From an uncultured Alphaproteobacteria bacterium (GTDB lineage Bacteria; Pseudomonadota; Alphaproteobacteria; UBA6615), in assembly GCA_964276015.1 (NCBI GenBank), contig CAXYDO010000009.1, forward strand, positions 60,738 through 124,737: a stretch of 64,000 nt of DNA, written 5' to 3'. Positions 3,912 through 27,701 of the stretch are shown here, piece by piece. Position 1 is the first letter of the stretch, and each line of letters starts with the position of its first letter. The notes beneath the pieces were generated by a model. It searched no databases. It was not told the DNA's origin and saw only the letters and a list, made by a program, of their open reading frames with translations. The translations under genes and the position numbers were made by a program.

Positions 3912-5996
3912 ATGGCATCGACAACCGCAGCCTCTTCGAATTTCAACCCGGCTATTGCCGCCTGGAACGGAACGTTGGGCCTGCCGGAGTTCGGACGTAT
4001 TGCGGATGGTGATTTCGCTGCTGCGTTTGACGTCGCGTTGCCAGCCCATCTGGCAGAAATCGAGGCGATCGCGACCAATTCCGACGCGCCGACCTTCGAG
4101 AACACAATTATTCCTCTCGAGCTTGTGGGCGATCTCCTGGATCGGGCATCGGGTATTTTCTGGAATCTTTCCGGGGCCAATACCAACGACGTGTTGCAGG
4201 AACTCGAACGGAAATTATCCCCGGAGATGTCGCGCCACTATTCGGCTGTGATGATGAACGCGGCGCTGTTTGCCCGGGTCGATGCACTTTATCAGGACCG
4301 CGCCAATCTTGGCCTCGATGGCGAAGCCGCGCGGGTGCTGGAGCTGAGCTGGAAGTCCTTCGTGCGATCAGGGGCGAAGCTCGATGCGGCGGATCAGGCG
4401 CGGCTGGCCGCGATCAATGAAAGACTGGCCAGTCTGGGGACGACGTTCTCCCAGAATGTGCTGGCCGATGAGAGCGAGTATGCGCTGGTTCTGGAGCGCG
4501 AAGAGGATTTGGCGGGTCTGCCCGATTTTCTGATCTCGAGCATGGCGGCTGCCGCCGAGGAACGTGGCCATGGGGGCAAACATGCGGTCACCCTGTCGCG
4601 TTCGATCATCGAGCCGTTCCTGACCTTTTCGACAAGGCGCGATCTGCGGGAGCAGGCCTTTACGGCCTGGGCTGCGCGCGGCGAGGGTGAGGGGGAACGA
4701 GACAATCGCCCGCTCGTGGCAGAAATGGTGAAGCTTCGTGCAGAGAAGGCGGCTTTGCTGGGCTATGAAAGCTTTGCTCATTTCAAACTCGACAACACCA
4801 TGGCCAAAACCCCGGAAAATGTCCGTTCCCTGCTGGAAACCATGTGGGAGAAAGCAAGAATTCGGGCGGGCGAAGAGGCCGAAGACCTGGCGGAACTGAT
4901 CGCCGCAGAGGGCCAGAATCATGACGTCGCACCGTGGGATTGGCGGCACTATTCGGAGAAAGTGCGAGCCGCACGGTTCGATTTCGACGAAGCCGAGGTT
5001 AAGCCGTATTTGCAACTTGAGCAGATGATTGATGCTGCCTTTAATACAGCGGAACGCCTGTTCGGGATCACCATCCGCAAGCTGGAGAATGTCGCCACTT
5101 ACCATCCCGACGTTCGGGTGTTCGAGGTGCTCGATGCGGAAGGCGAGCATGTCGCCGTTTTCCTCGGTGACTATTTCGCGCGCGCGCCCAAACGGTCAGG
5201 GGCCTGGATGAGTTCGTTTCAGGACCAGCATCGGTTAGAGATGACTTCCGGGAATACCGGTCAGACACCCATCGTTGTGAATGTCATGAATTTCGCCAAG
5301 GCAGCGCCCGGTCAGCCGGTGCTGATCACCATGGACGATGCTCGGACGCTGTTTCACGAGTTCGGCCATGCCCTGCACGGCATGTTGTCGGACATCACCT
5401 ATCCTTCGATTTCGGGCACGTCGGTCAGTCGGGATTTTGTCGAACTGCCCTCACAATTGTTCGAACACTGGCTGACTGTGCCCGAGGTACTACGCCGTTT
5501 CGCGGTACATCATGAAACCGGCGAGCCGATCCCCGACGCGCTGTTGGAAAAAATGCGTGCCGCCCAGAGATTCAACAAGGGCTTTGCCAATGTCGAGTTC
5601 ACCTCTTCGGCGTTGGTCGATATGGCCTTCCACGCGCTCGACGCGAAGGCGGCTGCAAATATTGATCCGGCGGCCTTCCAGGCCGAGGTCCTCGAGCGCA
5701 TCAACATGCCCGCCGAGATCGTGATGCGCCACGCCACGCCGCATTTCCAGCATGTGTTCTCCGGCGATGGTTATTCGGCCGGCTACTATTCCTACATGTG
5801 GTCCGGGGTGCTTGATTCTGATGCATTTGGGGCGTTCACCGAAGCAGGTGATCCATTCGATCCCGCGACCGCCGAGAAGCTCTACCGCCATATCTATTCG
5901 TCGGGCGGCTCAATGGACCCGGAAGACGCCTACCTCGCGTATCGGGGCAAGCTGCCGACTCCGGATGCTCTGATGGAAAAGGAAGGCCTGGCCTAG
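3912..5996 (+). CDS. dcp: M3 family peptidyl-dipeptidase (Dcp / oligopeptidase A-like zinc metallopeptidase)
   Basis: 694 aa; HEFGHALH zinc motif; overall M3 architecture. Confidence 0.85.
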   Translation: MASTTAASSNFNPAIAAWNGTLGLPEFGRIADGDFAAAFDVALPAHLAEIEAIATNSDAPTFENTIIPLELVGDLLDRASGIFWNLSGANTNDVLQELERKLSPEMSRHYSAVMMNAALFARVDALYQDRANLGLDGEAARVLELSWKSFVRSGAKLDAADQARLAAINERLASLGTTFSQNVLADESEYALVLEREEDLAGLPDFLISSMAAAAEERGHGGKHAVTLSRSIIEPFLTFSTRRDLREQAFTAWAARGEGEGERDNRPLVAEMVKLRAEKAALLGYESFAHFKLDNTMAKTPENVRSLLETMWEKARIRAGEEAEDLAELIAAEGQNHDVAPWDWRHYSEKVRAARFDFDEAEVKPYLQLEQMIDAAFNTAERLFGITIRKLENVATYHPDVRVFEVLDAEGEHVAVFLGDYFARAPKRSGAWMSSFQDQHRLEMTSGNTGQTPIVVNVMNFAKAAPGQPVLITMDDARTLFHEFGHALHGMLSDITYPSISGTSVSRDFVELPSQLFEHWLTVPEVLRRFAVHHETGEPIPDALLEKMRAAQRFNKGFANVEFTSSALVDMAFHALDAKAAANIDPAAFQAEVLERINMPAEIVMRHATPHFQHVFSGDGYSAGYYSYMWSGVLDSDAFGAFTEAGDPFDPATAEKLYRHIYSSGGSMDPEDAYLAYRGKLPTPDALMEKEGLA

Positions 5997-6071
5997 CCGG
6001 AGAATTGACTCCGGGCCCGTTGCGCGGCACGAACATACCCAACGAAATGATAAAATCACGGGGGGGTATGG

Positions 6072-6947
6072 ATGGTGGGTGACGAGCTTGGAATGATTGG
6101 GCTGGGAAAGATGGGCTTGAGCCTGTCGCAACAGATGGTCGCTGATGGCCACACCGTCTGTGGCTACGATATTGACCCCGCGCGGATGCAGATGCTGGCA
6201 GATGCAGGTGGCACGCCTGTGGCAAACGCCCGGGAAGTCGCTGAAAACAGCGACATCACCTTCTCGATCCTACTCAAGCCCGAACATATCGAAGAAAACC
6301 TGTTCGGGCCGAACGGCATCGACAAGGCCGGAAAGACCGGATTGATCCATGTCGAGATGAGCACCATGCCGCCGGCCTACAGCAAGGAGCTGGCGGTGAA
6401 ATTGGCCGGATCGGGCATTGATATGCTCGACGCGCCGATTTCCGGATCCACACCCCAGGTCGACGCACGCACCATCACCTTCATGGTGGGCGGTAGCGAC
6501 ATGGCCTACGCCCGGGTGCAGCCGATCATCACGCCCCTGTCTGCCGATGCGACCCATACCGGGCCGTCAGGCAGTGGTGGGGTGATGAAGGTCGTCACCA
6601 ATATGTATGTGAATGCCAGCACGGCCCTGATTGCCGAAATGCTCCTCACAGGTGAGAAAGCGGGACTGTCCCAGGAGGTCATGCGTCATTGTTTACCGAA
6701 AGGTTCCGTGCGCGGCGCGATGCTCGATATGAGCCTGGACCCGGTGTTTAAACGGGATTTCACGGCGCGCGGTGCGGTCGAAATCTTCGTCAAGGATATG
6801 GGGATTGCCATCGATCTGGCGAAGGATAACGGCATCGAGTTGCAAGTTGTTCCTGCCGCGCGGGCCATGTTCCAGAAAGCCGAAGCCGCGGGCTGGGGCA
6901 AGGACGACGCGACCCGGGTGCTCGAAGTCTATGAGGGGAAGGCCTGA
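6072..6947 (+). CDS. NAD(P)-dependent 3-hydroxyisobutyrate/6-phosphogluconate dehydrogenase-like oxidoreductase
   Basis: N-terminal MIGLGKMGLSLSQQM Rossmann motif; 291 aa. The start may instead be the internal Met at 6093. Confidence 0.8.
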   Translation: MVGDELGMIGLGKMGLSLSQQMVADGHTVCGYDIDPARMQMLADAGGTPVANAREVAENSDITFSILLKPEHIEENLFGPNGIDKAGKTGLIHVEMSTMPPAYSKELAVKLAGSGIDMLDAPISGSTPQVDARTITFMVGGSDMAYARVQPIITPLSADATHTGPSGSGGVMKVVTNMYVNASTALIAEMLLTGEKAGLSQEVMRHCLPKGSVRGAMLDMSLDPVFKRDFTARGAVEIFVKDMGIAIDLAKDNGIELQVVPAARAMFQKAEAAGWGKDDATRVLEVYEGKA

Positions 6948-6954
6948 GGCAGAC

Positions 6955-7992
6955 ATGACAAATTATACGATCTGCGTTTTGCCGGGAGATGGCATCGGGC
7001 CCGAAGTGATCAATTGCGCCCGCCGAGTTCTCGATACGCTGACAGTGCGGGGTAGACCGGGCTTCACTTATGATGTGCATAAGGCTGGCTATGACCTGTT
7101 TCTGGAAACCGGTCATTCCATGCCCGACAACGTTCTGGTGGCCGCGAAGGCCGCGGACGCGGTACTGCTCGGCGCGATGAATGTGGCGCAGATCCCACCC
7201 CAGGGCGGTGATCCTCTTGGGGGCCTTCGGATCGGGCTTGAAGTCAGCGCCAGCGTCCGCCCGTCCCGCACCATTCCCGGCATTCCGTCCCCGGCGGCCG
7301 ATATTGACTGCGTGGTCGTACGTGAGGTGACCGAGGGGCTTTATTCCCGCGACGAATATATGGGGGACGATGATTCCGCCTATGCAGTCCGCATCATCAC
7401 AAGGGACGCTTCGACCAAGACCGCGCGGATGGCCTTTGCTCAGGCCATTGCCCGCCAGCAGGCATCGGGAAAACCGGCGCGGGTCACCGCCGTGCACAAG
7501 GTCGGGGTCCTCAAGCTGAGTGACGGGCTATTCCTGGAAGCATGCGCGGCTGTGGCAGAAGAATTCCCGGACATCGAGTATGAGACCCGTAATATCGACG
7601 CCTGCGCCATGGAAATGGTGCGCGAACCGGGCGAATTTGATGTGATCCTGGCGACCAATGCCTTTGGCGATATCCTTTCCGATGTTGCCGCAGGGCTGGC
7701 CGCGGGGCTGGGCCTGGCCGCATCGGCCTGTATTGGTGATCGCTGGGCTTATTTCGAGCCGGTGCACGGCACAGCGCCTGATATTGCCGGGAAAGGCATC
7801 GCCAACCCGTGCGCCACGATCCTGAGCGTGGCGATGATGCTGCGCTATCTGGGCGAAGATTTGGGCGCGGATGCGGTCGAACATGCTGTGAATGCGGTTC
7901 TCGCCGATGGCGCCGTGCGGACCGGTGATCTGGGCGGGTCGGCAACAAGCGCCGAAATGACCGATGCGATCCTTAGCCAATTGAACCCGTAG
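6955..7992 (+). CDS. Isocitrate/isopropylmalate dehydrogenase family protein (tartrate/3-IPM dehydrogenase-like)
   Basis: ATG 6955 gives MTNYTICVLPGDGIGPEVI...; NAFGDILSD motif. The ORF-track 5' extension overlaps the upstream gene. Confidence 0.85.
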   Translation: MTNYTICVLPGDGIGPEVINCARRVLDTLTVRGRPGFTYDVHKAGYDLFLETGHSMPDNVLVAAKAADAVLLGAMNVAQIPPQGGDPLGGLRIGLEVSASVRPSRTIPGIPSPAADIDCVVVREVTEGLYSRDEYMGDDDSAYAVRIITRDASTKTARMAFAQAIARQQASGKPARVTAVHKVGVLKLSDGLFLEACAAVAEEFPDIEYETRNIDACAMEMVREPGEFDVILATNAFGDILSDVAAGLAAGLGLAASACIGDRWAYFEPVHGTAPDIAGKGIANPCATILSVAMMLRYLGEDLGADAVEHAVNAVLADGAVRTGDLGGSATSAEMTDAILSQLNP

Positions 7993-8024
7993 CAGTAACC
8001 TTTCGATCAACGGAGAATATTGTC

Positions 8025-8876
8025 GTGGCCATCATCACGGAAGACATCGAGATATTTCACCACGGCGACAAGCCGATGATTATTCGTTTGATCCACCCAG
8101 AAGGAGGCGCGCCTTGTCCGGCGATTGTGGATTTGCATGGCGGCGGCTGGGGCAAAGGACACCCGAGCGAATGCACGACGCGGGGTGAAGTGTTCGCCGA
8201 GAACGGGATGGCGTCAGCGGCGCTGGATTTCCGTCAGGCCGCCGACCGGTATCCATCATCCCTGGAAGATATCAACTATGCGATCCGCTGGCTGAAAGTG
8301 AACGCCGCGGAGCTCAACATTGACCCGGCGCGTATCGGTTTGCTCGGCCAGTCGAGCGGCGGCCATCTGGCGATGCTGTCTGCGATGCGCCCGAACGATC
8401 CGCGCTACGCGGCATTGGAGCTGCCAGGGGACGCCCCTGACGTGGATGCGTCCGTGTGCTGTGTGGGCATGATGTGGCCCGTGATCAATCCCCTGTCGCG
8501 CTACCGCCGTGTGGTCGGCTTGCTCGCGGCAGGTGATCCGCCCGCCTGGGTAGGTGATCTGGAGCAGCGTCACGACACCTATTGGGTGACCGAGGACAAT
8601 ATGGAAGAGGGAAACCCGATGCTGGCTTTGGAGCGCGGCGAGGATCTGGTGATCCTGCCGTCGATCTGGATGCAGGGGCAGGTGGATCCGGTGCATGACT
8701 ATCGGGATCCGGGGTCACCCCTCGATCTCAACGAGCCCGAGCGCTTCGTTGAGAATTACCGTAAGTGGGGTGGGGCGATGAGCATCTATCATGTGGAACA
8801 GGCGAACCGATCCGACCCGGCGTTGCTGGGCCCGATGGTCGAGTTTTTCAGAACCAACCTCGTCGTACCAAAGTAG
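8025..8876 (+). CDS. Alpha/beta hydrolase (esterase/lipase fold-3 like)
   Basis: HGGGW oxyanion motif and GQSSGGHLA nucleophile elbow. Confidence 0.75.
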   Translation: MAIITEDIEIFHHGDKPMIIRLIHPEGGAPCPAIVDLHGGGWGKGHPSECTTRGEVFAENGMASAALDFRQAADRYPSSLEDINYAIRWLKVNAAELNIDPARIGLLGQSSGGHLAMLSAMRPNDPRYAALELPGDAPDVDASVCCVGMMWPVINPLSRYRRVVGLLAAGDPPAWVGDLEQRHDTYWVTEDNMEEGNPMLALERGEDLVILPSIWMQGQVDPVHDYRDPGSPLDLNEPERFVENYRKWGGAMSIYHVEQANRSDPALLGPMVEFFRTNLVVPK

Positions 8877-9170
8877 CTATTCGATCCCTTCGACGAACCG
8901 AAGATCGCGGATCACACCGCCATCGAGTGCGACCAGGGCGGCCTGATAATCCGGGCCGTCATGAGTGGCGATAGCAGCTTCGAGAGAATCGAACAGAATG
9001 ATGGTCGTCCGTTCCAGGACGCCGGCTTCGTAGACTTTCGCGGCGGCCCCCCGGGTCAGGAATGTGCCGCCACCCTTGGCGATCGCCGGTCCGGCGAGTT
9101 CGATATAGGCGGCAAATTTGTCGGCGTCGTCGATCGCGCGGTAGGCGGCGACCCAATATGCTTTTGCCAT
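8877..9170 (-). CDS. DUF1330 domain protein
   Basis: 97 aa, MAKAYWVAAYRAIDDADKFAAYIELAGPAI..., a typical DUF1330 N-terminus (from memory). Confidence 0.65.
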   Translation of the reverse strand: MAKAYWVAAYRAIDDADKFAAYIELAGPAIAKGGGTFLTRGAAAKVYEAGVLERTTIILFDSLEAAIATHDGPDYQAALVALDGGVIRDLRFVEGIE

Positions 9171-9210
9171 GATGTTCTCCTGAAAAAACTGTGAAAACAG
9201 CTATTTGTAC

Positions 9211-10020
9211 CTAGATAGAGGCTTCGGCCTTGTCGAGGAACGCCTGTACGGTCGTGTTCCATTTCTCGGGATGGCGTCGATAAGAATAGTGCCCGCCATC
9301 ATCGAAGAACTGCACTTGCGACCCCGGGATAGCCGCGTGCAGGTCCTTCGCGAAATAGTAGGGGATTGTCGCGTCATCCATGGTGCCGATGATCAGGGCA
9401 GGCTTGTCGATGCCGAAGATTTCGCTGGTCCGATCATGGGCGAGCATCATGTCGAGGCGCGCAGCGAGTATTTCGACAGAGCCAATCGTCTCAAGCGCCC
9501 GGCGCTCCAGTTCCATGACGGCGTCGAAATTGTTGCGAAACTGATCGGCGCCCGAAGTGAACATGCTCGAGACCTTCACATACTCTTCCGGGCCGTAGGA
9601 TTCCGCGATCCGTTTGCGGGTGAGCGCGACCCGGGTGATGAACTCGTCGGCCGTGACCCAGGTGTTATTGAAGATGCAGGCGCGAACCCGGTCCGGGTGG
9701 TCGAGGGCCAGGTTCTGCAGGATGCATCCGCCCGTCGATGTGCCCACGATATGGGCTTTCTCGATGCCAAGCGTGTCCATCAGCGCGATGACGTCGTCGG
9801 CGATAGCCTGGGTCGAATAGGCCCCGGGACCGCTGGGTTTGTCGCTTTCCCCGGTGCCGCGGTGGTCGAAGGTGACAGCGCGATAACGCTGAGCGAAGTG
9901 GTCCAGCTGGAACGACCAGGCGTCATAAAGACCGACAAGGCCGGGGATGAAGATGAAGGCTTCCCCCGTTCCCGCGTCAGCGATGTTCAGGGTGATGTGT
10001 CCAATATCGATACGGGCCAT
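9211..10020 (-). CDS. Alpha/beta hydrolase
   Basis: ATG 10020 gives MARIDIGHITLNIADAGTGEAFIFIPG...FDHRGTGESD...HIVGTSTGG (GxSxG). It starts 5 nt after the stop of the upstream gene. Confidence 0.8.
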   Translation of the reverse strand: MARIDIGHITLNIADAGTGEAFIFIPGLVGLYDAWSFQLDHFAQRYRAVTFDHRGTGESDKPSGPGAYSTQAIADDVIALMDTLGIEKAHIVGTSTGGCILQNLALDHPDRVRACIFNNTWVTADEFITRVALTRKRIAESYGPEEYVKVSSMFTSGADQFRNNFDAVMELERRALETIGSVEILAARLDMMLAHDRTSEIFGIDKPALIIGTMDDATIPYYFAKDLHAAIPGSQVQFFDDGGHYSYRRHPEKWNTTVQAFLDKAEASI

Positions 10021-12029: not shown

Positions 12030-12290
12030 GTAGCCACAGCGCGAGTGGGTATAAACTTCGACCCTATTGCCGTCGGGGTCGCGGAAATAGAACGATCACG
12101 CATTGCCGTGGCAGGTCGTGTACATGATTTTATGCCCTGCTGAAGTCGCACGTTTATGCATCGCGCGCAGTTCCTCAAGGGAATCGACCAGGAACGAGAT
12201 TTGCTGGGCTGAGCCCACGCCCTCTGTTTCGGGCATTTGCCTCGGCCAGGACGAGCTCATGATGCTCGCTGAGCTGGCAATGGACATTCC
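12030..12290 (-). pseudogene. VOC/glyoxalase-family gene remnant (frameshift plus in-frame TGA)
   Basis: The ORF 12096..12287 ends ...YTTCHGNA at a TGA (12096..12098). The same frame continues SFYFRDPDGNRVEVYTHS, the VOC C-terminal signature. Upstream, a different frame reads SEHHELVLAEA. The N-terminus is missing and abuts the stop of the Mo-hydroxylase gene. Confidence 0.55.
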
Positions 12291-23666: not shown

Positions 23667-23774
23667 GGGTCGGTTCCTCCGTGGGGCGTTCGCCCCGCTT
23701 CGCGTCGATTGTCTTGGAGGCTAGGCTGATGGCCAATTCGCGGTCAAGCTTGACCGATATACTGAGAAAAAATT

Positions 23775-23864
23775 TGGCGGAGGGAGAGAGATTCGAACTC
23801 TCGATACCCTTGCAGGTATACTAGTTTTCGAGACTAGCGCATTCAACCACTCTGCCACCCCTCC
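23775..23864 (-). tRNA. tRNA-Ser (anticodon CGA)
   Basis: Minus strand: GGAGGGG-TG-GCA-GAGTGGTTGAA-TGC-G-CTAGT-CTCGAAA-ACTAG-[long variable arm TATACCTGCAAGGGTATC]-GAGAG-TTCGAAT-CTCTC-TCCCTCC-G-CCA. The cloverleaf folds by hand, with discriminator G and an encoded CCA. Confidence 0.9.
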
Positions 23865-23943
23865 GACGGGATGTTTATACTTATTTTCAGGACAAATGGA
23901 ACTCGTATCTCACCGACCCTATGAGGTCGTGTTTCGGTTACCC

Positions 23944-24013
23944 GTTAAGACACAAAAAGGTTGTGAGGTTTTGACCCCCCATCCGTATTTTTTTCCCAGT
24001 TAAGACACAAAAA
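23944..24013. repeat. Two direct copies of GTTAAGACACAAAAA, 55 nt apart
   Basis: 23944..23958 and 23999..24013, identical 15-mers, 80-150 nt from the 5' end of the tRNA gene. Confidence 0.7.
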
Positions 24014-24081
24014 AAACCCCAGTTTTAGGGGGGGTCTTCGATATATCTCCAAGGGACGTTATTGGAGTTATAGATTAGGTT

Positions 24082-24333
24082 TTATTTTCCAGTTTTGACG
24101 GGGGGGCAATCCTCCTCAAACGCAAAGTAGTCTGCGTACCCACCCATTTCCCAACTAGTTCCCTTCGGTAGTCCCAGTTTCTTGTCTATCCCTGCGAGGT
24201 CAGCAAAGGTTCCTGTATCTCCAAGTTTGGAAATCTCCTCATTCACCAGTTTTGCGGTTGCGTCATATCCACCAGACATTCGTTTCCAACTTCGTAGGAT
24301 TGAGATTTCCTCATCCAACTGACTTGCGACCAT
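24082..24333 (-). CDS. Hypothetical small protein, paralog A (83 aa)
   Basis: AAGGAG RBS 6 nt upstream of the ATG. MVASQLDEEISILRSWKRMSGGYDATAKLVNEEISKLGDTGTFADLAGIDKKLGLPKGTSWEMGGYADYFAFEEDCPPVKTGK. I do not recognise a family. Confidence 0.6.
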   Translation of the reverse strand: MVASQLDEEISILRSWKRMSGGYDATAKLVNEEISKLGDTGTFADLAGIDKKLGLPKGTSWEMGGYADYFAFEEDCPPVKTGK

Positions 24334-24373
24334 CGGTTCTCCTTATTTTTAGATTTGTAAGTGTCTCGTTGGA

Positions 24374-24465
24374 TTAGACCCACTCGACACCTCACTCAGG
24401 CAACTTTCTCTGACCCTTCTCGACCCCAACGCAAAAGACCCCTCAGCATGGCGTCTGAGAGGTCT
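24374..24465 (-). promoter_or_regulatory. Module copy 1: hairpin terminator plus promoter-like conserved block
   Basis: Minus strand: AGACCTCTCAG-acgccatg-CTGAGGGGTCT-TTTGCGTTGGGGTCGAGAAGGGTCAGAGAAAGTTGCCTGAGTGAGGTGTCGAGTGGGTCTAA. An 11-bp stem with 1 mismatch, followed by a T-run. Confidence 0.55.
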
Positions 24466-24646
24466 GTATTGGTGTTATATCCGAGGGATGTCCGAGTGTG
24501 ACCTCAGAGAAACATATGACGTGAGGTCTTATTTCTGTTGCTCAGACGGTCTGGATGATTTTTGGTGCAAATCTCCCCTCATGATATCGGGGTGGTGCGT
24601 CTGTGCGCTCCTCTGCGGTCGTTTGGCAGGAAAGCTGGCTTACCGC

Positions 24647-25069
24647 TTATCCCACTAACCAAGATATTGGTATTACTAGAAATCCCATGAGGCAACAAAT
24701 TAGCCAAAAACCTAGTCCCTGAAAAATAGACCAATACAGTTCTTTAATTCTTGCGGGAAAACAACTCTTATCCTGAATTGTTTTAATTTTGGGCGACAAC
24801 CCAAACCCTGATACCAAAAGAACCACACAAGACGCCCCAAAAATCCAAATTCCTACACCAAAAAAGAAAGCAGTTAGGACAAATTGAAAGATATCAAACA
24901 CTAGATTTATTAATGATACAGATTTCATTGAAGAGAAATTTTGAAAATAGAATATTACAACGAGAAAAAAAGGTAGGATATTCTTAGATACTACTAGCCA
25001 TCTTGGCTGCCGAATAATTTCCGGCTTATAATCTATAAAATATTTGATAAGAAAACGCTTTAAGAACAT
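24647..25069 (-). CDS. Hypothetical polytopic membrane protein (140 aa), extremely AT-rich
   Basis: About 4 hydrophobic helices (ILPFFLVVIFYF; FVLTAFFFGVGIWIFGASCVVLLVSGF; GLGFWLICCLMGFLVIPISWLV). Weak RBS. No recognised family. Confidence 0.5.
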   Translation of the reverse strand: MFLKRFLIKYFIDYKPEIIRQPRWLVVSKNILPFFLVVIFYFQNFSSMKSVSLINLVFDIFQFVLTAFFFGVGIWIFGASCVVLLVSGFGLSPKIKTIQDKSCFPARIKELYWSIFQGLGFWLICCLMGFLVIPISWLVG

Positions 25070-25147
25070 TAAATCCCATTAGATGAAGCCCTTAATACCG
25101 GCCATCAGAATCCCTTTCCAATTTTTTTATTACGTAATATTTTTAGC

Positions 25148-25173
25148 CACACATTCACGGGCAAGTTTCTGTG
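25148..25173. repeat. 26-nt repeat copy A (CACACATTCACGGGCAAGTTTCTGTG)
   Basis: Matches 27023..27048 at 21/26 positions in the same orientation. Ends are CACA...TGTG. Confidence 0.6.
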
Positions 25174-25221
25174 CGTCAGCGATTTGAGGGCGTGTTCATC
25201 GCTGGCCGTTAGTTGGCATTC

Positions 25222-25371
25222 TTAACGACATTTGAAGCCCGAATCATTTTCCTTGGCGACGCAGCTAATCGGAGGCTTTGAAGGCCACATCGATGCCTGA
25301 TCTAAATTATCACTACATCCTGACAGGGAAAGAAGTCCGATAGCGATGATGGTGGCGGTTAGGTTTCTCAT
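25222..25371 (-). CDS. Small lipoprotein (49 aa)
   Basis: MRNLTATIIAIGLLSLSGC, a signal peptide with an L-S-G-C lipobox; the mature part is about 30 aa with two more Cys. The 86-aa ORF-track version adds a non-coding-looking leader. Confidence 0.5.
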   Translation of the reverse strand: MRNLTATIIAIGLLSLSGCSDNLDQASMWPSKPPISCVAKENDSGFKCR

Positions 25372-25434
25372 GGGGGAAGTCTGACAGAGAACATTCCGAA
25401 TGGGTAGAGAGAATGGGTGACACCGTATGAAAGA

Positions 25435-25476
25435 CCCTCCAGTGGTGATCCAGGTCCCCCTCCAGTGGTGATCCAG
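25435..25476. repeat. Tandem 19-nt repeat CCCTCCAGTGGTGATCCAG x2 (period 23 nt) in the lipoprotein leader
   Basis: 25435..25453 and 25458..25476 are identical. The period is not a multiple of 3. Confidence 0.8.
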
Positions 25477-25494
25477 ATCCATTACCCCGCAGAC

Positions 25495-25584
25495 TTAGAC
25501 CCACTCGACACATTACCCAGGCACCTTTCCCTGACCCTTCTCGACCCCAACGCAAAACCCCCCAGCATGGTCAATGAGAGGTCT
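25495..25584 (-). promoter_or_regulatory. Module copy 3 (degenerate hairpin, conserved core)
   Basis: Minus strand: ...TTTTGCGTTGGGGTCGAGAAGGGTCAGGGAAAGGTGCCTGGGTAATGTGTCGAGTGGGTCTAAG. The hairpin arms carry about 4 mismatches. Confidence 0.45.
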
Positions 25585-25632
25585 GTATGGGTGTCGGTGG
25601 TGGGTATTGGGGGTGGTCGGGTGAGGTTCTCC

Positions 25633-25722
25633 TCAGGTGACCTTCTGAGCAACGAACTCTGACGGACCCTTACCCTTGGAACGTTTCACAACATACCCCT
25701 TCCAGTTTCGGGTAGGGGGTCC
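25633..25722 (-). pseudogene. Truncated duplicate of the C-terminus of the 93-aa protein
   Basis: Reads ...GPPTRNWKGYVVKRSKGKGPSEFVAQKVT then stop, against ...KGYVVKRSKGKGASGFVAQKVV then stop in 26194..26475. No start codon. Confidence 0.6.
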
Positions 25723-25789
25723 ATATTTCTCTCTAGGTTCAACCCTACTTTTGTAGGTTAGATTTTATCTCCCAGTTTTGACGGGGGGT

Positions 25790-26017
25790 CTAATCCTCCT
25801 CAAACGCAAAGTAGTCAGCATATCCCCCCATTTCCCAACTGGTTCCCTTCGGCAATCCCAGTTTCTTGTCTATCCCTGCGAGGTCTGCAAAGGTTCCCGC
25901 ATCCCCAAGTTTGGAAATCTCCTCATTCACCTTCCTTGCGGTTGCGTCATATCCACCAGACATTCGTTTCCAACTTCGTAGGATTGAGATTTCCTCATCC
26001 AACTGACTTGCGACCAT
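25790..26017 (-). CDS. Hypothetical small protein, paralog B (75 aa)
   Basis: Same RBS and leader as paralog A; 4 aa substitutions. It ends at a TAG where paralog A has TGC and reads on for 8 more codons. Confidence 0.6.
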   Translation of the reverse strand: MVASQLDEEISILRSWKRMSGGYDATARKVNEEISKLGDAGTFADLAGIDKKLGLPKGTSWEMGGYADYFAFEED

Positions 26018-26057
26018 CGGTTCTCCTTATTTTTAGATTTGTAAGTGTCTCGTTGGA

Positions 26058-26149
26058 TTAGACCCACTCGACACCTCACTCAGGCAACTTTCTCTGACCC
26101 TTCTCGACCCCAACGCAAAAGACCCCTCAGCATGGTGACTGAGAGGTCT
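26058..26149 (-). promoter_or_regulatory. Module copy 2
   Basis: Identical to copy 1 across the conserved block. The hairpin is 26120..26149, with 2 loop substitutions. Confidence 0.55.
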
Positions 26150-26193
26150 ATATGGGTCGGTGGTGGGTATTGGTTGGTCTGTGTGAGGTCTAA

Positions 26194-26475
26194 TCAGACA
26201 ACCTTCTGAGCAACGAACCCTGACGCACCCTTACCCTTAGACCTCTTGACGACATATCCCTTGGTGCCCAGACGAAAGGTCTTGTCGTCCTTGAACTGAC
26301 CCAGTGCGGCGACGAGTGCGTCTGCAACAGGGTCACGAACTTCCTTAGGGGTCTTGGACTGGGTTTTCATCCACTTACCGAATGCGTTCTCTGCGATGTC
26401 GTCACCGACACTCTTGCGGAGGGCATTGAGTTTGCGGACCTGACCTTTAGTCAGAGTGGAATGGTCGATGGTCAT
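26194..26475 (-). CDS. Hypothetical Lys-rich small protein (93 aa)
   Basis: ATG 26475 with GAAGGAA RBS. MTIDHSTLTKGQVRKLNALRKSVGDDIAENAFGKWMKTQSKTPKEVRDPVADALVAALGQFKDDKTFRLGTKGYVVKRSKGKGASGFVAQKVV. No recognised family. Confidence 0.6.
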   Translation of the reverse strand: MTIDHSTLTKGQVRKLNALRKSVGDDIAENAFGKWMKTQSKTPKEVRDPVADALVAALGQFKDDKTFRLGTKGYVVKRSKGKGASGFVAQKVV

Positions 26476-26594
26476 GGAAGTTCCTTCTTTGGATAGATGC
26501 GACATTGTATTTGATATTATAATTATAAAGCAGAATGTCTGAGTTCGATAGAGAAAATTAGGAGTGGGTGGTTCTGCACTCATGCCTCGCAGAC

Positions 26595-26675
26595 TTAGAC
26601 CCTCTCGATGGAACACTCTAAGAACCTTTCTGACCCCAACGCAAAAGACCCCTCAGCACGGTGACCGAGAGGTCT
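26595..26675 (-). promoter_or_regulatory. Module copy 4 (internal deletion, intact hairpin)
   Basis: Minus strand: AGACCTCTCGG-tcaccgtg-CTGAGGGGTCT-TTTGCGTTGGGGTCAGAAAGGTTCTTAGAGTGTTCCATCGAGAGGGTCTAAG. Confidence 0.5.
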
Positions 26676-26725
26676 TTATCGGTGTTATGTCTGAGGGATA
26701 ATCAGAAAGAGGACTAGGTGAAGTT

Positions 26726-26899
26726 TTACTCAGAATTTTTATCATCAATAAGTTTGTCTAATTTTAATATTACCAATTTGAACGACCCATATAAAATTAA
26801 TCCCAGACCAAAAATACCAAACCCTATTGATATAGCGATTTGTTGAAAAATAAATCCCCATCCAATAATCTTCAAAATATCTCCCGCTAAAAGGGTCAA
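26726..26899 (-). CDS. Possible small 2-TM protein (57 aa, TTG start) or C-terminal relic of a membrane protein
   Basis: LTLLAGDILKIIGWGFIFQQIAISIGFGIFGLGLILYGSFKLVILKLDKLIDDKNSE. No ATG and no RBS. Below the ORF-track length cutoff. Confidence 0.3.
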   Translation of the reverse strand: MTLLAGDILKIIGWGFIFQQIAISIGFGIFGLGLILYGSFKLVILKLDKLIDDKNSE

Positions 26900-26990
26900 G
26901 GAACTGCGTGATAGTTGAATGGGTGCGTCAGCAATCGCAAAGGAAATGGGGATTGGTAGAGCACCCGTATATCCGGCACTTGGGGCGTAG
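26895..26990 (+). pseudogene. Relic of a serine recombinase (resolvase/invertase) C-terminal HTH
   Basis: VKELRDS-[TGA]-MGASAIAKEMGIGRAPVYPALGA then stop. This resembles the resolvase-type HTH tail (..ELR..G.S...IAKE.GI.R..VYR.L). The catalytic domain is absent. Confidence 0.45.
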
Positions 26991-27022
26991 AGGTTCTACT
27001 CAACACCCTTTGTGTTTTTACG

Positions 27023-27048
27023 GACACATTTACGGGCAAGGTCTTGTG
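27023..27048. repeat. 26-nt repeat copy B (GACACATTTACGGGCAAGGTCTTGTG)
   Basis: See 25148..25173. It lies 33 nt downstream of the recombinase relic. Confidence 0.6.
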
Positions 27049-27069
27049 ATTTTTTAAGCTGAATCCTCT

Positions 27070-27372
27070 CTATTGAGACATTAGTGCCATCAATCCAGCA
27101 CCCAAGAAGAGAAGTCCAATAACAGAAAAAATAAGACTTAAATAACTTATTATTAATCCAGCGAGCGCCATCCCCGACCCTGTTTCAGCTCCCCCACTAC
27201 GCCTAATTTGGGACCTCGCTATATGCCCACATATGATTGCGGCAATTTGGGCAACAATTGGTATAATAAAGGTTGCAAGAACTCCAAGCAGCGATAGTAC
27301 CAAGGAGATAATCGACAATACATTTGTTTTGGGGGTGGTTAACCTGTGATCTAATATTTTATGTTCTGTCAT
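27070..27372 (-). CDS. Small membrane protein (DUF4190-like), 100 aa
   Basis: AAGGAAGAG RBS. Two long hydrophobic segments flank [26 protein letters not shown], a pattern I associate with DUF4190. Confidence 0.55.
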
Positions 27373-27551
27373 AACTCTTCCTTACCCAAACTCACCCTCA
27401 CACTTCTATGAAGCACGGCAATCGTCAAGCAGATGGTAGCGGGAACGGACCTGCATAAGATACAAGCGCAGAGTTTCTACCGCACGTGCTCACCTACCTG
27501 CAACCCGCAGTGGGTGTGAGATTATTACCTGAAAGTGGGTCCTTTCGGCGG

Positions 27552-27579
27552 TTGACACCGGCGGCTGGCGGCGTATAGT
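27552..27579 (+). promoter_or_regulatory. Sigma70-type promoter of rplU-rpmA
   Basis: TTGACA (27552-27557), 16 nt, TATAGT (27574-27579); about 120 nt upstream of the rplU ATG. Confidence 0.5.
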
Positions 27580-27701
27580 CCGCCCGCATTCGATGGATCG
27601 CTGGAGAAATTCGCGGTCCGCCTTGTTTTTGCTGGAACATTCGGCACTTTGAGCCCCTGCATTTGGGGGCGCATTGGCCGCGAATAGACGGATCCGGATT
27701 T

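Follow-up and report, generated by a model that had tools for sequence, protein, structure and literature searches.

Islet structure and the four repeats

The window, that is, the whole 64-kb stretch analysed, comes from an uncultured marine bacterium. It contains a 3.5-kb low-GC islet that extends from a tRNA-Ser(CGA) gene to rplU and is inserted between the 5' end of the former and the upstream region of the latter. All four copies of a repeated junction module lie inside this islet, on the strand of the adjoining tRNA gene. The features are as follows.

23775–23864, minus strand: tRNA-Ser(CGA), proximal end of the islet, same orientation as the four junctions
23865–27434, no strand: variable islet, GC 43–51% versus about 60% in the flanks
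24082–24333, minus strand: 83-aa gene, downstream of copy 1
24374–24480, minus strand: junction copy 1 (hairpin 24436–24465, U-tract 24432–24435, tRNA-like block 24376–24410)
24374–24387, minus strand: core of copy 1, TCGAGTGGGTCTAA
24504–24533: 30-nt 3' remnant of a gene of the 59-aa ribbon-helix-helix family, between the 140-aa ORF and copy 1
24647–25069, minus strand: 140-aa membrane-protein ORF
25222–25374, minus strand: small lipoprotein gene, downstream of copy 2
25495–25600, minus strand: junction copy 2 (decayed hairpin 25556–25584, tRNA-like block from 25530, core 25495–25508)
25611–25701: 3' remnant of a second copy of the 93-aa gene, upstream of copy 2
25790–26017, minus strand: 75-aa paralogue of the 83-aa gene, downstream of copy 3
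26058–26165, minus strand: junction copy 3 (intact hairpin 26120–26149, tRNA-like block 26060–26094, core 26058–26071)
26194–26475, minus strand: 93-aa gene, start MTIDHS; a longer reading begins at 26505
26595–26690, minus strand: junction copy 4 (hairpin 26646–26675, tRNA-like block from about 26630 to about 26560)
26595–26608, minus strand: core of copy 4, TCGAGAGGGTCTAA
26892–26987, plus strand: remnant of a small serine recombinase gene (the 32 C-terminal aa; 78% identity to L026:8161-8700)

The site differs among relatives. In L220 the corresponding tRNA-Ser/rplU site is empty, and strains L003–L010 have other contents there; in L006 and L010 a displaced 5' half of tRNA-Ser is followed at the same site by a tyrosine integrase. 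No tyrosine integrase was found in the window by tblastn with the L006 and L026 integrases as queries.

The first-pass annotation had reported four co-oriented minus-strand repeats at these positions, sharing a core 40–125 nt ahead of the next start codon, and all of this was reproduced. The core CGAGWGGGTCTAA occurs exactly four times in the 64 kb, and the distances to the start codons are 40, 120, 40 and 89–119 nt. A scan with one mismatch allowed (0.09 matches expected in the 64 kb) adds a fifth match, at 12042–12054 on the plus strand. With an nhmmer profile of the four copies, no others are recovered from the window: the four themselves have E 1e-29 to 1e-38, the next match E 0.16. Two details of the annotation had to be corrected. 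The decayed hairpin is that of copy 2 (a 2-nt deletion, −9.7 kcal/mol), not of copy 3, which is intact. Copy 4, supposed to have lost its middle, lacks one of the two units of an 11-nt tandem duplication (GAGAAGGGTCA / GGGAAAGGTGC) situated upstream of the block, and its GAAAGG-to-TCGAG spacing is kept within 1 nt.

The block of copy 1 breaks off after TCTAA and is joined to the upstream region of the 83-aa gene (TCCAACGAGACAC), while the core of copy 2 continues as GTCTGCGGGGTAAT with a T-arm-like part up to about 25465. Copy 3 is identical (100%) to copy 1 over the 69-nt register 26058–26126, with a different hairpin loop; it is part of a duplication of about 400 nt that includes the 83/75-aa gene and encompasses both copies. 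Upstream of the hairpin, conservation extends for about 8–15 nt in all copies; in one class of flanks it reaches about 35 nt at most.

Terminator hairpin

The hairpin had been interpreted as an intrinsic terminator of the upstream gene, and its strong stem, the U-tract and the location downstream of a co-oriented ORF support this. The stems in copies 1, 3 and 4 have 11–12 bp and energies of −17.6, −18.9 and −18.2 kcal/mol, respectively, and each is followed by TTTTGCGTT. Among 176 distinct instances elsewhere, 152 have the end of a co-oriented ORF upstream of the module, at a median distance of 41.5 nt. The sole consensus structure produced by RNAalifold for 100 diverse copies is a terminator stem of 10–11 pairs; the fraction of paired cells, 97–99%, is biased, because the 3' arm of the hairpin belonged to the search pattern. 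Some relatives have different, compensated hairpins (GACCCTGA...TCAGGGTC and others) with energies of −16 to −20 kcal/mol and the U-tract kept, and in a few copies of the family the terminator is lost or replaced.

The tRNA-like block

The conserved block, beginning about 28 nt after the U-tract, is a degenerate copy of a tRNA-Ser gene and keeps the register of the tRNA between its position 1 and the anticodon loop. Within this pseudo-tRNA, the core corresponds to the D-stem and the anticodon arm. This tRNA-Ser nature had been overlooked in the first-pass annotation. The alignment of the block with the tRNA-Ser(TGA) of L016 begins precisely at position 1 of the tRNA and has 15 matches in 17 positions (shuffle p 0.007). 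The ungapped consensus matches tRNA-Ser at 23 of 37 positions in register and at no more than 16 of 37 in about 90 other registers, and the best single copies have 24 of 34 matches to Ser(TGA) and Ser(CGA) alike. A global alignment of the block and its downstream part with the whole tRNA yields a z-score of 6.3 (0 of 1000 shuffles were as good), and MAFFT independently puts the 5' halves of the block and the tRNA in register. The similarity is clear between the 5' strand of the acceptor and U33 of the anticodon loop, where identity ends, and weaker in the T-arm and at the 3' end. At about 60% identity the block is not scored by the Rfam tRNA model, and the module itself is not represented in Rfam. 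No long exact repeat is common to the module and any tRNA, and the core shows no dyad symmetry.

All junction copies carry the same derived changes, and therefore they are copies of one another rather than independent scars of the local tRNA. Descent of the block from tRNA-Ser, as its alignment suggests, would point to an attachment-site origin rather than to a purpose-built promoter.

Junctions in other genomes

The family recurs in at least 120 ocean metagenome contigs. The fetched element-bearing loci are mostly metagenome contigs, picked solely by the terminator 20-mer. Contigs often break within the module.

The suggestion that the modules are junctions between small gene units is supported by co-oriented ORFs on both sides and by arrays of a single orientation. 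In 134 of the 176 distinct instances a co-oriented ORF starts downstream, at a median distance of 116 nt from the module and 40–250 nt from the core. In 43 of 44 multi-copy loci all copies have one orientation, the exception being L016 with two oppositely oriented arrays. The repeats are about 110–115 nt long and mostly 290–2500 nt apart, with two distances of 3.4–4.2 kb; the first genes of the arrays have no module.

Such arrays look much like those of integrons, for example the Vibrio cholerae repeats: in both, short ORFs without a known function lie in one orientation, with conserved repeats of some 110 nt between them, and both are hypervariable among strains. Nevertheless, it is hardly credible that the junctions are attC sites of a CALIN-type cassette array. 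By eye, the RYYYAAC/GTTRRRY boxes are missing, as the ends are ATACAGAC ... GTCTAAG, with two mismatches to the GTT box including the invariant T. No long imperfect palindrome pairs the two ends, given that the terminator stem was the only structure in the RNAalifold consensus; instead of a folded-hairpin architecture, the repeat has a terminator and a tRNA-like block. Repeats do not follow every gene, and IntI is missing: the integrase of L026 reaches 21.7 bits with the integron-integrase model, whose cut-off is 265 bits.

Copies occur inside islets only. None lies in the window's 60 kb of core genome or in the core flanks of the fetched loci, and the exact two-part pattern is absent from 185,579 species-representative genomes. 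The earlier idea of a MITE or REP-type dispersed repeat is in keeping with a short, repeated, non-coding unit within which contigs break; on the other hand, the module has neither terminal inverted repeats nor target duplications, its orientation is always that of the flanking genes, and it is confined to islets, all of which makes this explanation extremely improbable. The Correia elements of Neisseria and the enterobacterial ERIC/IRU are bounded by inverted repeats and occur genome-wide in both orientations. They resemble the junctions as short conserved intergenic units able to provide neighbours with terminators or promoters, but the junctions are restricted to islets, oriented and apparently tRNA-derived.

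Other arrays adjoin tRNA-Arg, Thr, Glu, Gln and Ser(TGA) genes; the repeat has at least six different tRNA genes as neighbours. In L016, one junction is situated at the distal island border, co-oriented with tRNA-Ser(TGA), the left array is inverted relative to tRNA-Ser, and no gene follows the final junction of the array.

Conservation within the module is very uneven: in 96 distinct copies a 22-nt core is near-invariant, in contrast to the hairpin loop and the D-loop-like part, which are free to vary. The family core runs on as TCGAGnGGGTCTAAGTCTGCGG. In about 90% of the members it continues as ...GGGTCTAAGTCTGCGGGGTA, window copies 1 and 3 with the break after TCTAA being exceptions, and downstream similarity fades 0–30 nt past TCTAA. 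Break points of partial copies are scattered along the entire element instead of falling at one point, and SNPs within the element are unlinked to either neighbour and to one another. More than 100 clusters of neighbouring ORFs, 41 upstream and 76 downstream by crude ORF calls, are joined by the module. Between two genomes with 72% identity in their core genes, a cassette and its junction reach 88%, which speaks for exchange between hosts.

These data bear on passive conservation, by which the module would be no more than the spacer between two genes that were recently duplicated as a pair and spread horizontally, with a working terminator and a functionless downstream block. The location of copies 1 and 3 inside the 400-nt duplication, the overall identity of the module among copies, similar to that of the adjacent 93-aa gene, and the 3'-end gene remnants still attached to the module are consistent with it. 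We consider it quite unlikely, given the uneven conservation and the number of ORF clusters joined.

Genes between the junctions

The family of the 93-aa protein, which comprises 1653 clusters and for which no viral relatives were found, is the commonest one just upstream of a junction. Its members are followed by a junction in 56 of 142 cases and preceded by one in 7 of 131. A similar bias is seen for the ABM-like family (22 of 29 and 2 of 26, respectively) and for the ribbon-helix-helix family (16 of 31 and 0 of 23). The signal-peptide family has the opposite arrangement, being followed in 0 of 48 cases and preceded in 23 of 51. About one third of the genes downstream of junctions look exported, and many have a common signal peptide M(R/K)NLTATICLTIAVLLGSAG at a fixed distance of 69–72 or 91 nt. 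The signal peptide of the small lipoprotein in the window, MRNLTATIIAIGLLSLSGC, is a part of the conserved head of many such genes elsewhere.

An operator or an alternative-sigma promoter is possible for the core. The main rival to the reading we prefer combines the terminator with such a function: the core, within a module of about 45 nt (GGTGCC...TCGAGnGGGTCTAAGTCTGCGG), would be the start or regulatory site of the next gene, served by a non-housekeeping sigma factor or a regulator, and it would be conserved as one piece of the expression head, with the 5' UTR and the signal peptide, that a polymorphic family of exported proteins has in common. The position of the downstream ORF relative to the core, the fixed distance of the common signal peptide and the one-sided association of the signal-peptide family with junctions argue for it, as does the fading of similarity after TCTAA, expected for a common promoter with gene-specific leaders. 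Moreover, two hairpin-less copies (L137 and L177) keep exactly the 45-nt module ahead of a gene, and the coding strand of the islet has no sigma-70-like site, so the islet genes need another start. We also take GTCTAA in the core to resemble the −10 element of RpoE-type ECF promoters. However, by eye there is no acceptable −35/−10 pair with the spacing of sigma-70, sigma-54, EcfG or RpoE-type promoters, and a tRNA-derived block would be an unlikely raw material for a promoter. In L126, L198 and L190 lipoprotein genes have the terminator fused to the leader, with the core deleted; neither the module-less first genes of arrays nor the last L016 junction, with no gene behind it, fits a promoter. 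We regard this possibility as serious but doubtful.

Two promoter types considered in the first-pass annotation found no support. No sigma-70 promoter was detected on the coding strand in 23700–27700, nor in the L177 elements; the pair TTGCCT-19-TCTAAT has a wrong spacing and C at −11. A phage-polymerase promoter is disfavoured, as neither the core (TCGAGNGGGTCTAAGTCTG) nor the terminator 20-mer has a single match among the 2.9 million viral contigs of IMG/VR.

Recombinases and res sites

The recombinase remnant in the window runs opposite to the junction array. Elsewhere, 23 fetched element-bearing loci have a resolvase-type gene of 179 aa or what is left of its C-terminal part, and this type always lies antiparallel to the array. 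In L142, L179 and L026 the 83-aa family is divergent from the serine-recombinase gene, with a res-like region between them, and a classical res (TGTCTC/GAGACA repeats), different from the junction element, lies directly upstream of the resolvase gene. In L026, a tyrosine integrase adjoins tRNA-Arg.

Copies 1 and 3 of the window show a fusion of the core at the central TA of a 28-bp imperfect palindrome (TGTCGAGTGGGTC TA ATCCAACGAGACA). The fusion partner is the right half of a res subsite; in L142 and L179, this subsite flanks the 83-aa gene and has TGTCTCTGGTGGGTGTAA as its left half. This fusion, together with the recurrent recombinase, suggests that the core could be a res-like or pseudo-res site I, at which the small serine recombinase would excise or join cassettes. 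Like res sites of the Tn3/gamma-delta type, the junctions are about 115 nt long and often have a resolvase gene nearby. Yet the enzyme has its own res, unrelated to the rest of the element, TGTC occurs in no more than 31 of the 96 cores, and GACA is missing from the usual right half. The single hybrid junction may be explained by 9 nt of microhomology, and its reciprocal product was not found; hence a res function is improbable. A Tn3-type res site proper was rejected, since the res of that type, upstream of the resolvase gene in L142, L179 and L026, is another sequence and its binding motif is missing from most cores.

A recombinase acting in trans is also the basis of a broader, unlikely scheme, in which a tRNA attachment site would have given rise to a capture system resembling an integron, with the junctions as its live recombination sites. 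The invariant core would be where modules of 0.3–2.5 kb, themselves lacking an integrase, enter, leave and are reshuffled, through the action of either a tyrosine integrase of the islet or the small serine recombinase, which is ubiquitous. Each module would consist of the right half of the pseudo-tRNA, cargo genes, a small DNA-binding-type gene, the terminator and the left half of the next pseudo-tRNA. If this were true, abundant marine Alphaproteobacteria would have a cassette platform for exported proteins without IntI or attC.

Proposed serial accretion at a tRNA-derived junction

The reading that we prefer, tentatively and at somewhat less than an even chance, is that the module combines a terminator with a tRNA-derived, attachment-type junction of serially accreted gene modules, and that this junction is now a shared anchor of exchange. 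It builds on the repeats themselves, the terminator structure, the tRNA similarity, the organisation of the arrays, and the empty and alternative states of the site. The first part, a Rho-independent terminator, would end the transcript of the upstream gene; the second, a degenerate tRNA-Ser copy, would be a junction of the attachment-site type. When elements recombining inside a tRNA gene pile up side by side, a tRNA-derived repeat may be left behind and reused. A module between two junctions would usually begin with a gene for an exported protein and end with a gene for a small cytoplasmic protein and its terminator. Junctions may travel with their neighbours among islets at several tRNA loci and among genera, providing a common sequence for module exchange. 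The attachment-site origin, any recombination at the present day and the reason for the invariance of the 22–28-nt core are what we infer.

Several observations weigh against serial accretion. The pseudo-tRNA is degenerate and escapes the Rfam tRNA model, its copies derive from one another and not from the local tRNA, and the same junction lies beside different tRNAs, with one L016 array inverted to tRNA-Ser. The core lacks dyad symmetry and shares no long exact repeat with a tRNA, the window islet has no integrase, and the partial copies do not break at one point. The unlinked SNPs fit homologous exchange or homoplasy equally, and the two hairpin-less copies fit a promoter.

Should accretion at tRNA-derived junctions hold, the flexible islets of an abundant uncultured lineage of marine Alphaproteobacteria would be built of very small modules and one standard part, which both ends transcription and carries the junction. 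It would explain why metagenome assemblies break at these loci, why the same genes occur beside different tRNA genes and in different genera, and how a large unannotated set of proteins (the 1653 clusters of the 93-aa family and many signal-peptide proteins with the common head) is shuffled. The junction profile provides a sequence handle for recovery of cassette pools from metagenomes, and the system permits a direct test of whether tRNA attachment sites can turn into integron-like capture sites or portable regulatory parts.

CIMEs are integrase-less, cis-mobilisable elements of streptococci, where they accrete together with integrative elements at att sites, in tRNA genes or elsewhere. The islets are similar in having tandem units with att-type repeats at the bounds, and their recombinase-less units could move in trans. 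However, the units are much smaller here, and both the att role and the integrase partner are putative.

In the tRNA-linked marine islands of Prochlorococcus (tycheposon islands), partial tRNAs separate tandem elements (bioRxiv 10.1101/2020.12.28.424599). The features in common are tRNA-derived repeats between gene modules beside a tRNA gene, strain-variable islet content, integrases at the same site in some strains, and remnants of decayed elements. The differences are that here the repeat appears to be a degenerate, non-local pseudo-tRNA-Ser preceded by a terminator, that it is the same beside at least six tRNA genes, and that the modules span only 0.3–2.5 kb and contain no integrases. Moreover, the core is better conserved than a decaying scar should be.

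The junction module and its terminator

The junction module is about 105 nt long and is present in four copies on the minus strand of the window, all within a 3.5-kb stretch with a GC content of 43–51% in a genome of 60% GC. Each copy carries a hairpin and a U-tract, followed by a tRNA-like block with a conserved core.

Copies of the junction module
24374–24480, minus strand: junction copy 1, hairpin of −17.6 kcal/mol
25495–25600, minus strand: junction copy 2, decayed hairpin of −9.7 kcal/mol
26058–26165, minus strand: junction copy 3, hairpin of −18.9 kcal/mol
26595–26690, minus strand: junction copy 4, hairpin of −18.2 kcal/mol

The motif CGAGWGGGTCTAA occurs exactly four times in the window; a scan allowing one mismatch, with 0.09 matches expected, adds a fifth, one-mismatch match at 12042–12054 on the plus strand. 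A profile of the four copies, searched against the 64 kb, recovers just these four (E from 1e-29 to 1e-38; next match, E = 0.16), in agreement with the four repeats described in the first-pass annotation. Two details of that description have to be corrected. The decayed hairpin is that of copy 2, not copy 3, and copy 4 has no deletion in the middle of the block: the 11-nt unit duplicated in tandem immediately before the tRNA-like block is present once instead of twice, and the remainder is colinear to within 1 nt. The sequence TTTTGCGTT directly follows the three strong hairpins (copies 1, 3 and 4). No coding potential is seen across the module, every frame being broken by indels. Next to copy 2, at 25435–25480, the T-arm-like part after this copy is doubled by a 23-nt tandem duplication in perfect register, which reads CCCTCCAGTGGTGATCCAG[G/A]TCC on the plus strand.

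The hairpin is the sole consensus structure in 100 diverse copies, with 97–99% of cells paired and some double changes. In diverged relatives the inner stems are different, the stability is the same, and the U-tract is kept. At the level that sequence analysis allows, the hairpin is established as a terminator, as had been proposed from the window alone. The minimum free energy structure of copy 1 suggested that the 5′ arm of the hairpin pairs at long range with the core; this was rejected, as such pairing is not conserved in the family.

Conservation and distribution of the family

The family was sampled from loci fetched via the 93-aa gene (26194–26475, minus strand) and from a metagenome scan with the terminator 20-mer (at least 120 contigs), yielding at least 214 profile hits and at least 176 distinct instances. 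One public metagenome contig (L147, around position 1925) has the Nextera adapter CTGTCTCTTATACACATCTCCGAGCCCACGAGAC assembled into it.

In the profile of 107 copies with full flanks, conservation is high in the hairpin and U-tract, moderate in the next 45 nt, and nearly absolute in the core, TCGAGnGGGTCTAAGTCTGCGG followed by GGGTA. Copies 1 and 3 of the window, which break after TCTAA, are exceptions (2/96). The terminator served to ascertain the metagenome sample; the core did not enter the search pattern and is therefore real, although truncated as first delineated. Conservation being uneven along the module argues that the core is under selection.

Rfam scans with gathering and permissive thresholds detected the real tRNA only, leaving the module unmatched. 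The exact two-part pattern has no matches in the representative genomes of 185,579 species (one each) or in 2.9 million viral contigs, and in the latter the core-only, terminator-only and protein-based scans gave no matches either. Diverged copies are present in a few alphaproteobacterial MAGs. The literature searched contains no match to the module sequences, and a search by concept likewise returned nothing relevant. The module with its cassette is 88% identical between genomes whose core genes are 72% identical.

The tRNA-like block

The start of the block, GGAAAGGTGCCTGrGTG, coincides at 15 of 17 positions with the first 17 nt of the tRNA-Ser(TGA) of L016 (one of the fetched loci), the match starting precisely at position 1 of the tRNA (p 0.007 by shuffling). 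In the ungapped register of this tRNA the consensus has 23/37 identities, compared to at most 16/37 in about 90 other registers; the best single copies reach 24/34 with Ser(TGA) and likewise with the native Ser(CGA). The identity picks up again at GGTCT, covering the end of the anticodon stem with C32 and U33, and stops at the anticodon. Global alignment of the block and the common downstream sequence with the whole tRNA has z of 6.3, and 1000 shuffles gave no alignment as good; in it, TGGGGTCTGGATCACCCACACCCCA falls on the T-arm, the 3′ strand of the acceptor and CCA. MAFFT sets the 5′ halves of the block and the tRNA in the same register. A truncated-tRNA Rfam scan of the block alone produced no tRNA match, and the pseudo-tRNA is unable to fold as a tRNA. 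The similarity is moderate, and we regard the conserved block as tRNA-like, probably a degenerate sequence of tRNA origin. In tRNA terms, the core corresponds to the 3′ side of the D-stem and the anticodon arm, and the two main classes of downstream sequence part within the T-arm-like portion.

Genes adjoining the module

The module is intergenic, and its orientation tracks that of the genes. Among the matches listed, a co-oriented ORF ends at a median of 41.5 nt before the module in 152 of 176 instances, and one starts at a median of 116 nt after it in 134 of 176. All copies have the same direction in 43 of 44 loci with at least two copies. The segments between copies are mostly 290–2500 nt long, two reach 3.4–4.2 kb, and the main ORF is nearly always co-oriented. 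More than 100 clusters of neighbouring ORFs are joined by the module, some being spurious because of crude ORF calls.

Position of gene families relative to the module
93-aa family: module after the gene, 56/142; before, 7/131
ABM-like, 90 aa: module after the gene, 22/29; before, 2/26
Ribbon-helix-helix, 59 aa: module after the gene, 16/31; before, 0/23
Signal-peptide proteins: module after the gene, 0/48; before, 23/51

Thus, small cytoplasmic proteins precede the module and signal-peptide proteins come after it. Homologues of the 93-aa protein, whose gene lies upstream of copy 3, form 1653 clusters at 90% identity, mostly on short marine contigs; the distant ones (at most 65% identity; Pseudohongiella, Rariloculaceae MAGs and others) have no analogous module after the gene. 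The 93-, 83- and 90-aa proteins and other unnamed ORFs of the islet have no match in Pfam, PHROG or NCBIfam. The 93-aa protein has no PDB match either, and its AlphaFold model is poor (pLDDT 53). The 59-aa protein has a weak match of the ribbon-helix-helix type and no other, and a 100-aa ORF matches DUF4190.

The head M(R/K)NLTATICLTIAVLLGSAG is common to many downstream genes, in which its distance from the module is fixed. These genes include a polymorphic family of exported proteins and lipoproteins (L177, L178, L200, L205, L159 and other loci; 25222–25374 in the window) with a common leader and signal peptide and unrelated mature parts, some with MORN-type repeats. That these genes have the core, leader and signal peptide in common would fit the core being a promoter or operator of the downstream gene, as would the gradual fading of similarity after the core, the lack of a sigma-70-like site on the coding strand, and two hairpin-less copies that retain just the 45-nt core module before a gene. 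Against it, the block is of apparent tRNA origin, in one case no gene follows the terminal junction, the core is lost ahead of some lipoprotein genes, and inspection by eye revealed no credible bipartite motif. This role of the core is the main rival of the reading preferred below, and somewhat less probable. The readings compared by eye were sigma-70, the Caulobacter-type TTGACGS/GCTANAWC, sigma-54, EcfG (GGAAC-N16-17-CGTT), RpoE-type and T7-like, none convincing; the sole resemblance seen was that of GTCTAA in the core to what we take to be an RpoE-type −10 element. The promoter for a phage-type RNA polymerase suggested in the first-pass annotation finds no support in the T7-like comparison or in the viral contigs, where neither core nor terminator was matched. 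Upstream of rplU, at 27552–27579 (plus strand), there is a near-consensus sigma-70 promoter, TTGACA-16-TATAGT, hence the host uses canonical housekeeping promoters.

The islet and its insertion site

The islet (the low-GC stretch of 3.5 kb) is flanked by tRNA-Ser(CGA) (23775–23864, minus strand) on one side and rplU-rpmA-obg-proB on the other. The named relatives of ProB belong to uncultured Alphaproteobacteria or Rhodospirillaceae MAGs of marine metagenomic origin. Among contigs encoding the identical L27 protein, some have the same islet and others have different genes at this site, and several terminate within a junction copy. In two contigs of the window's species (L006:1–1560 and L010:1–470, 97–98% identical around rplU), the 5′ half of tRNA-Ser(CGA) stands displaced at this site. 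Its break lies in the anticodon loop, and a (split) tyrosine integrase comes next; this element replaces the 5′ half of the tRNA, which is the rarer orientation. In a relative with core genes 72% identical (L220), tRNA-Ser(CGA) and rplU are separated by 291 nt with nothing between. Since the site is hypervariable within the species, integrase-bearing in two contigs and empty in the relative, the islet is an insertion at a tRNA hot spot. Arrays are found next to tRNA-Ser(CGA), Ser(TGA), Arg(CCG), Arg(TCT)/Pro, Thr, Glu and Gln.

Every segment between copies in the window ends with an upstream-type gene or a 3′ remnant of one.

Gene remnants attached to the upstream side of junction copies
25611–25701, minus strand: 3′ remnant of a second 93-aa-family gene
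24504–24533, minus strand: 3′ remnant of a 59-aa ribbon-helix-helix-family gene

Tandemly integrated elements separated by partial tRNAs, which are copies of the attachment site, are known from tRNA-linked marine islands (bioRxiv 10.1101/2020.12.28.424599). Our preferred reading is that the module combines a terminator with a tRNA-derived junction of the attachment type, because the block appears tRNA-derived and is co-oriented with tRNA-Ser in the window, the site is integrase-bearing in L006 and L010, the L016 island has a junction at its distal border, and the asymmetry of gene families implies a unit structure. The fit is not clean, however: all copies have the same derived changes, the same junction adjoins many different tRNAs (inverted in one case), the core lacks dyad symmetry, the islet of the window contains no integrase, and the break points of partial copies are at many positions. 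Within the element, SNPs are linked neither to either neighbour nor to each other (SNP–neighbour linkage and an r2 matrix, aimed at locating a crossover point), which indicates only extensive exchange or homoplasy and is uninformative about the mechanism. The core may be read by a recombinase or by the transcription machinery.

Intergenic repeats with terminators are a known kind, as are island junctions derived from tRNAs. As far as we found, their combination is new: a terminator ahead of a degenerate pseudo-tRNA, reiterated between very small integrase-less modules and shared between islets at many tRNA genes and between genera.

Besides tRNA-Ser(TGA), the island of L016–L020 (around 5500–9500), located beside dctPQM, contains the gene of a small terminase subunit, fragments of rve and a serine recombinase of a second type; it may be a decayed satellite or prophage adjoining the cassette arrays.

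Two further intergenic motifs were observed. The first, GACCCCCC-N2-4-AAAACTGG, is repeated at the 3′ side of the 83-aa gene (24082–24333, minus strand) and its 75-aa paralogue (24017–24030, 24087–24106, 25700–25719, 25770–25789). Of these copies, one is a hairpin resembling a terminator, with T8, and another directly adjoins the remnant of the 93-aa gene; the motif also terminates the homologous gene in L026. The second, CTTGCCCGTrAATGTGT..TAAAAA on the minus strand, is found at 25140–25173 and 27015–27048, the latter copy 25–60 nt past the end of a recombinase remnant, and in other loci, once immediately ahead of a junction hairpin.

A serine recombinase associated with the arrays

Of the fetched loci that bear the element, 23 also have a gene of resolvase type (179 aa) or what remains of its C-terminal part; this type always runs antiparallel to the array.

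Recombinase remnant in the window
26892–26987, plus strand: 32 aa remaining from the C-terminus of a small serine recombinase, antiparallel to the array; identity to the intact gene L026:8161–8700, 78%

Upstream of the recombinase gene, between it and the divergent 83-aa gene family, several TGTCTC/GAGACA repeats form a res-like region of the classical type (L142:230–400, L179:4340–4500, L026:8700–8810). In copies 1 and 3 of the window, the junction core is fused to the right half of the res subsite bordering the 83-aa family, the two parts meeting at the TA in the centre of an imperfect palindrome of 28 bp. This fusion may record one deletion, mediated by the resolvase or by microhomology. 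Since the TGTC motif occurs in just 31 of 96 cores and no reciprocal product turned up, the idea was downgraded, and we do not regard the core as a general resolvase site. In two loci, L126 and L198, part of the res-like region is inverted relative to the gene.
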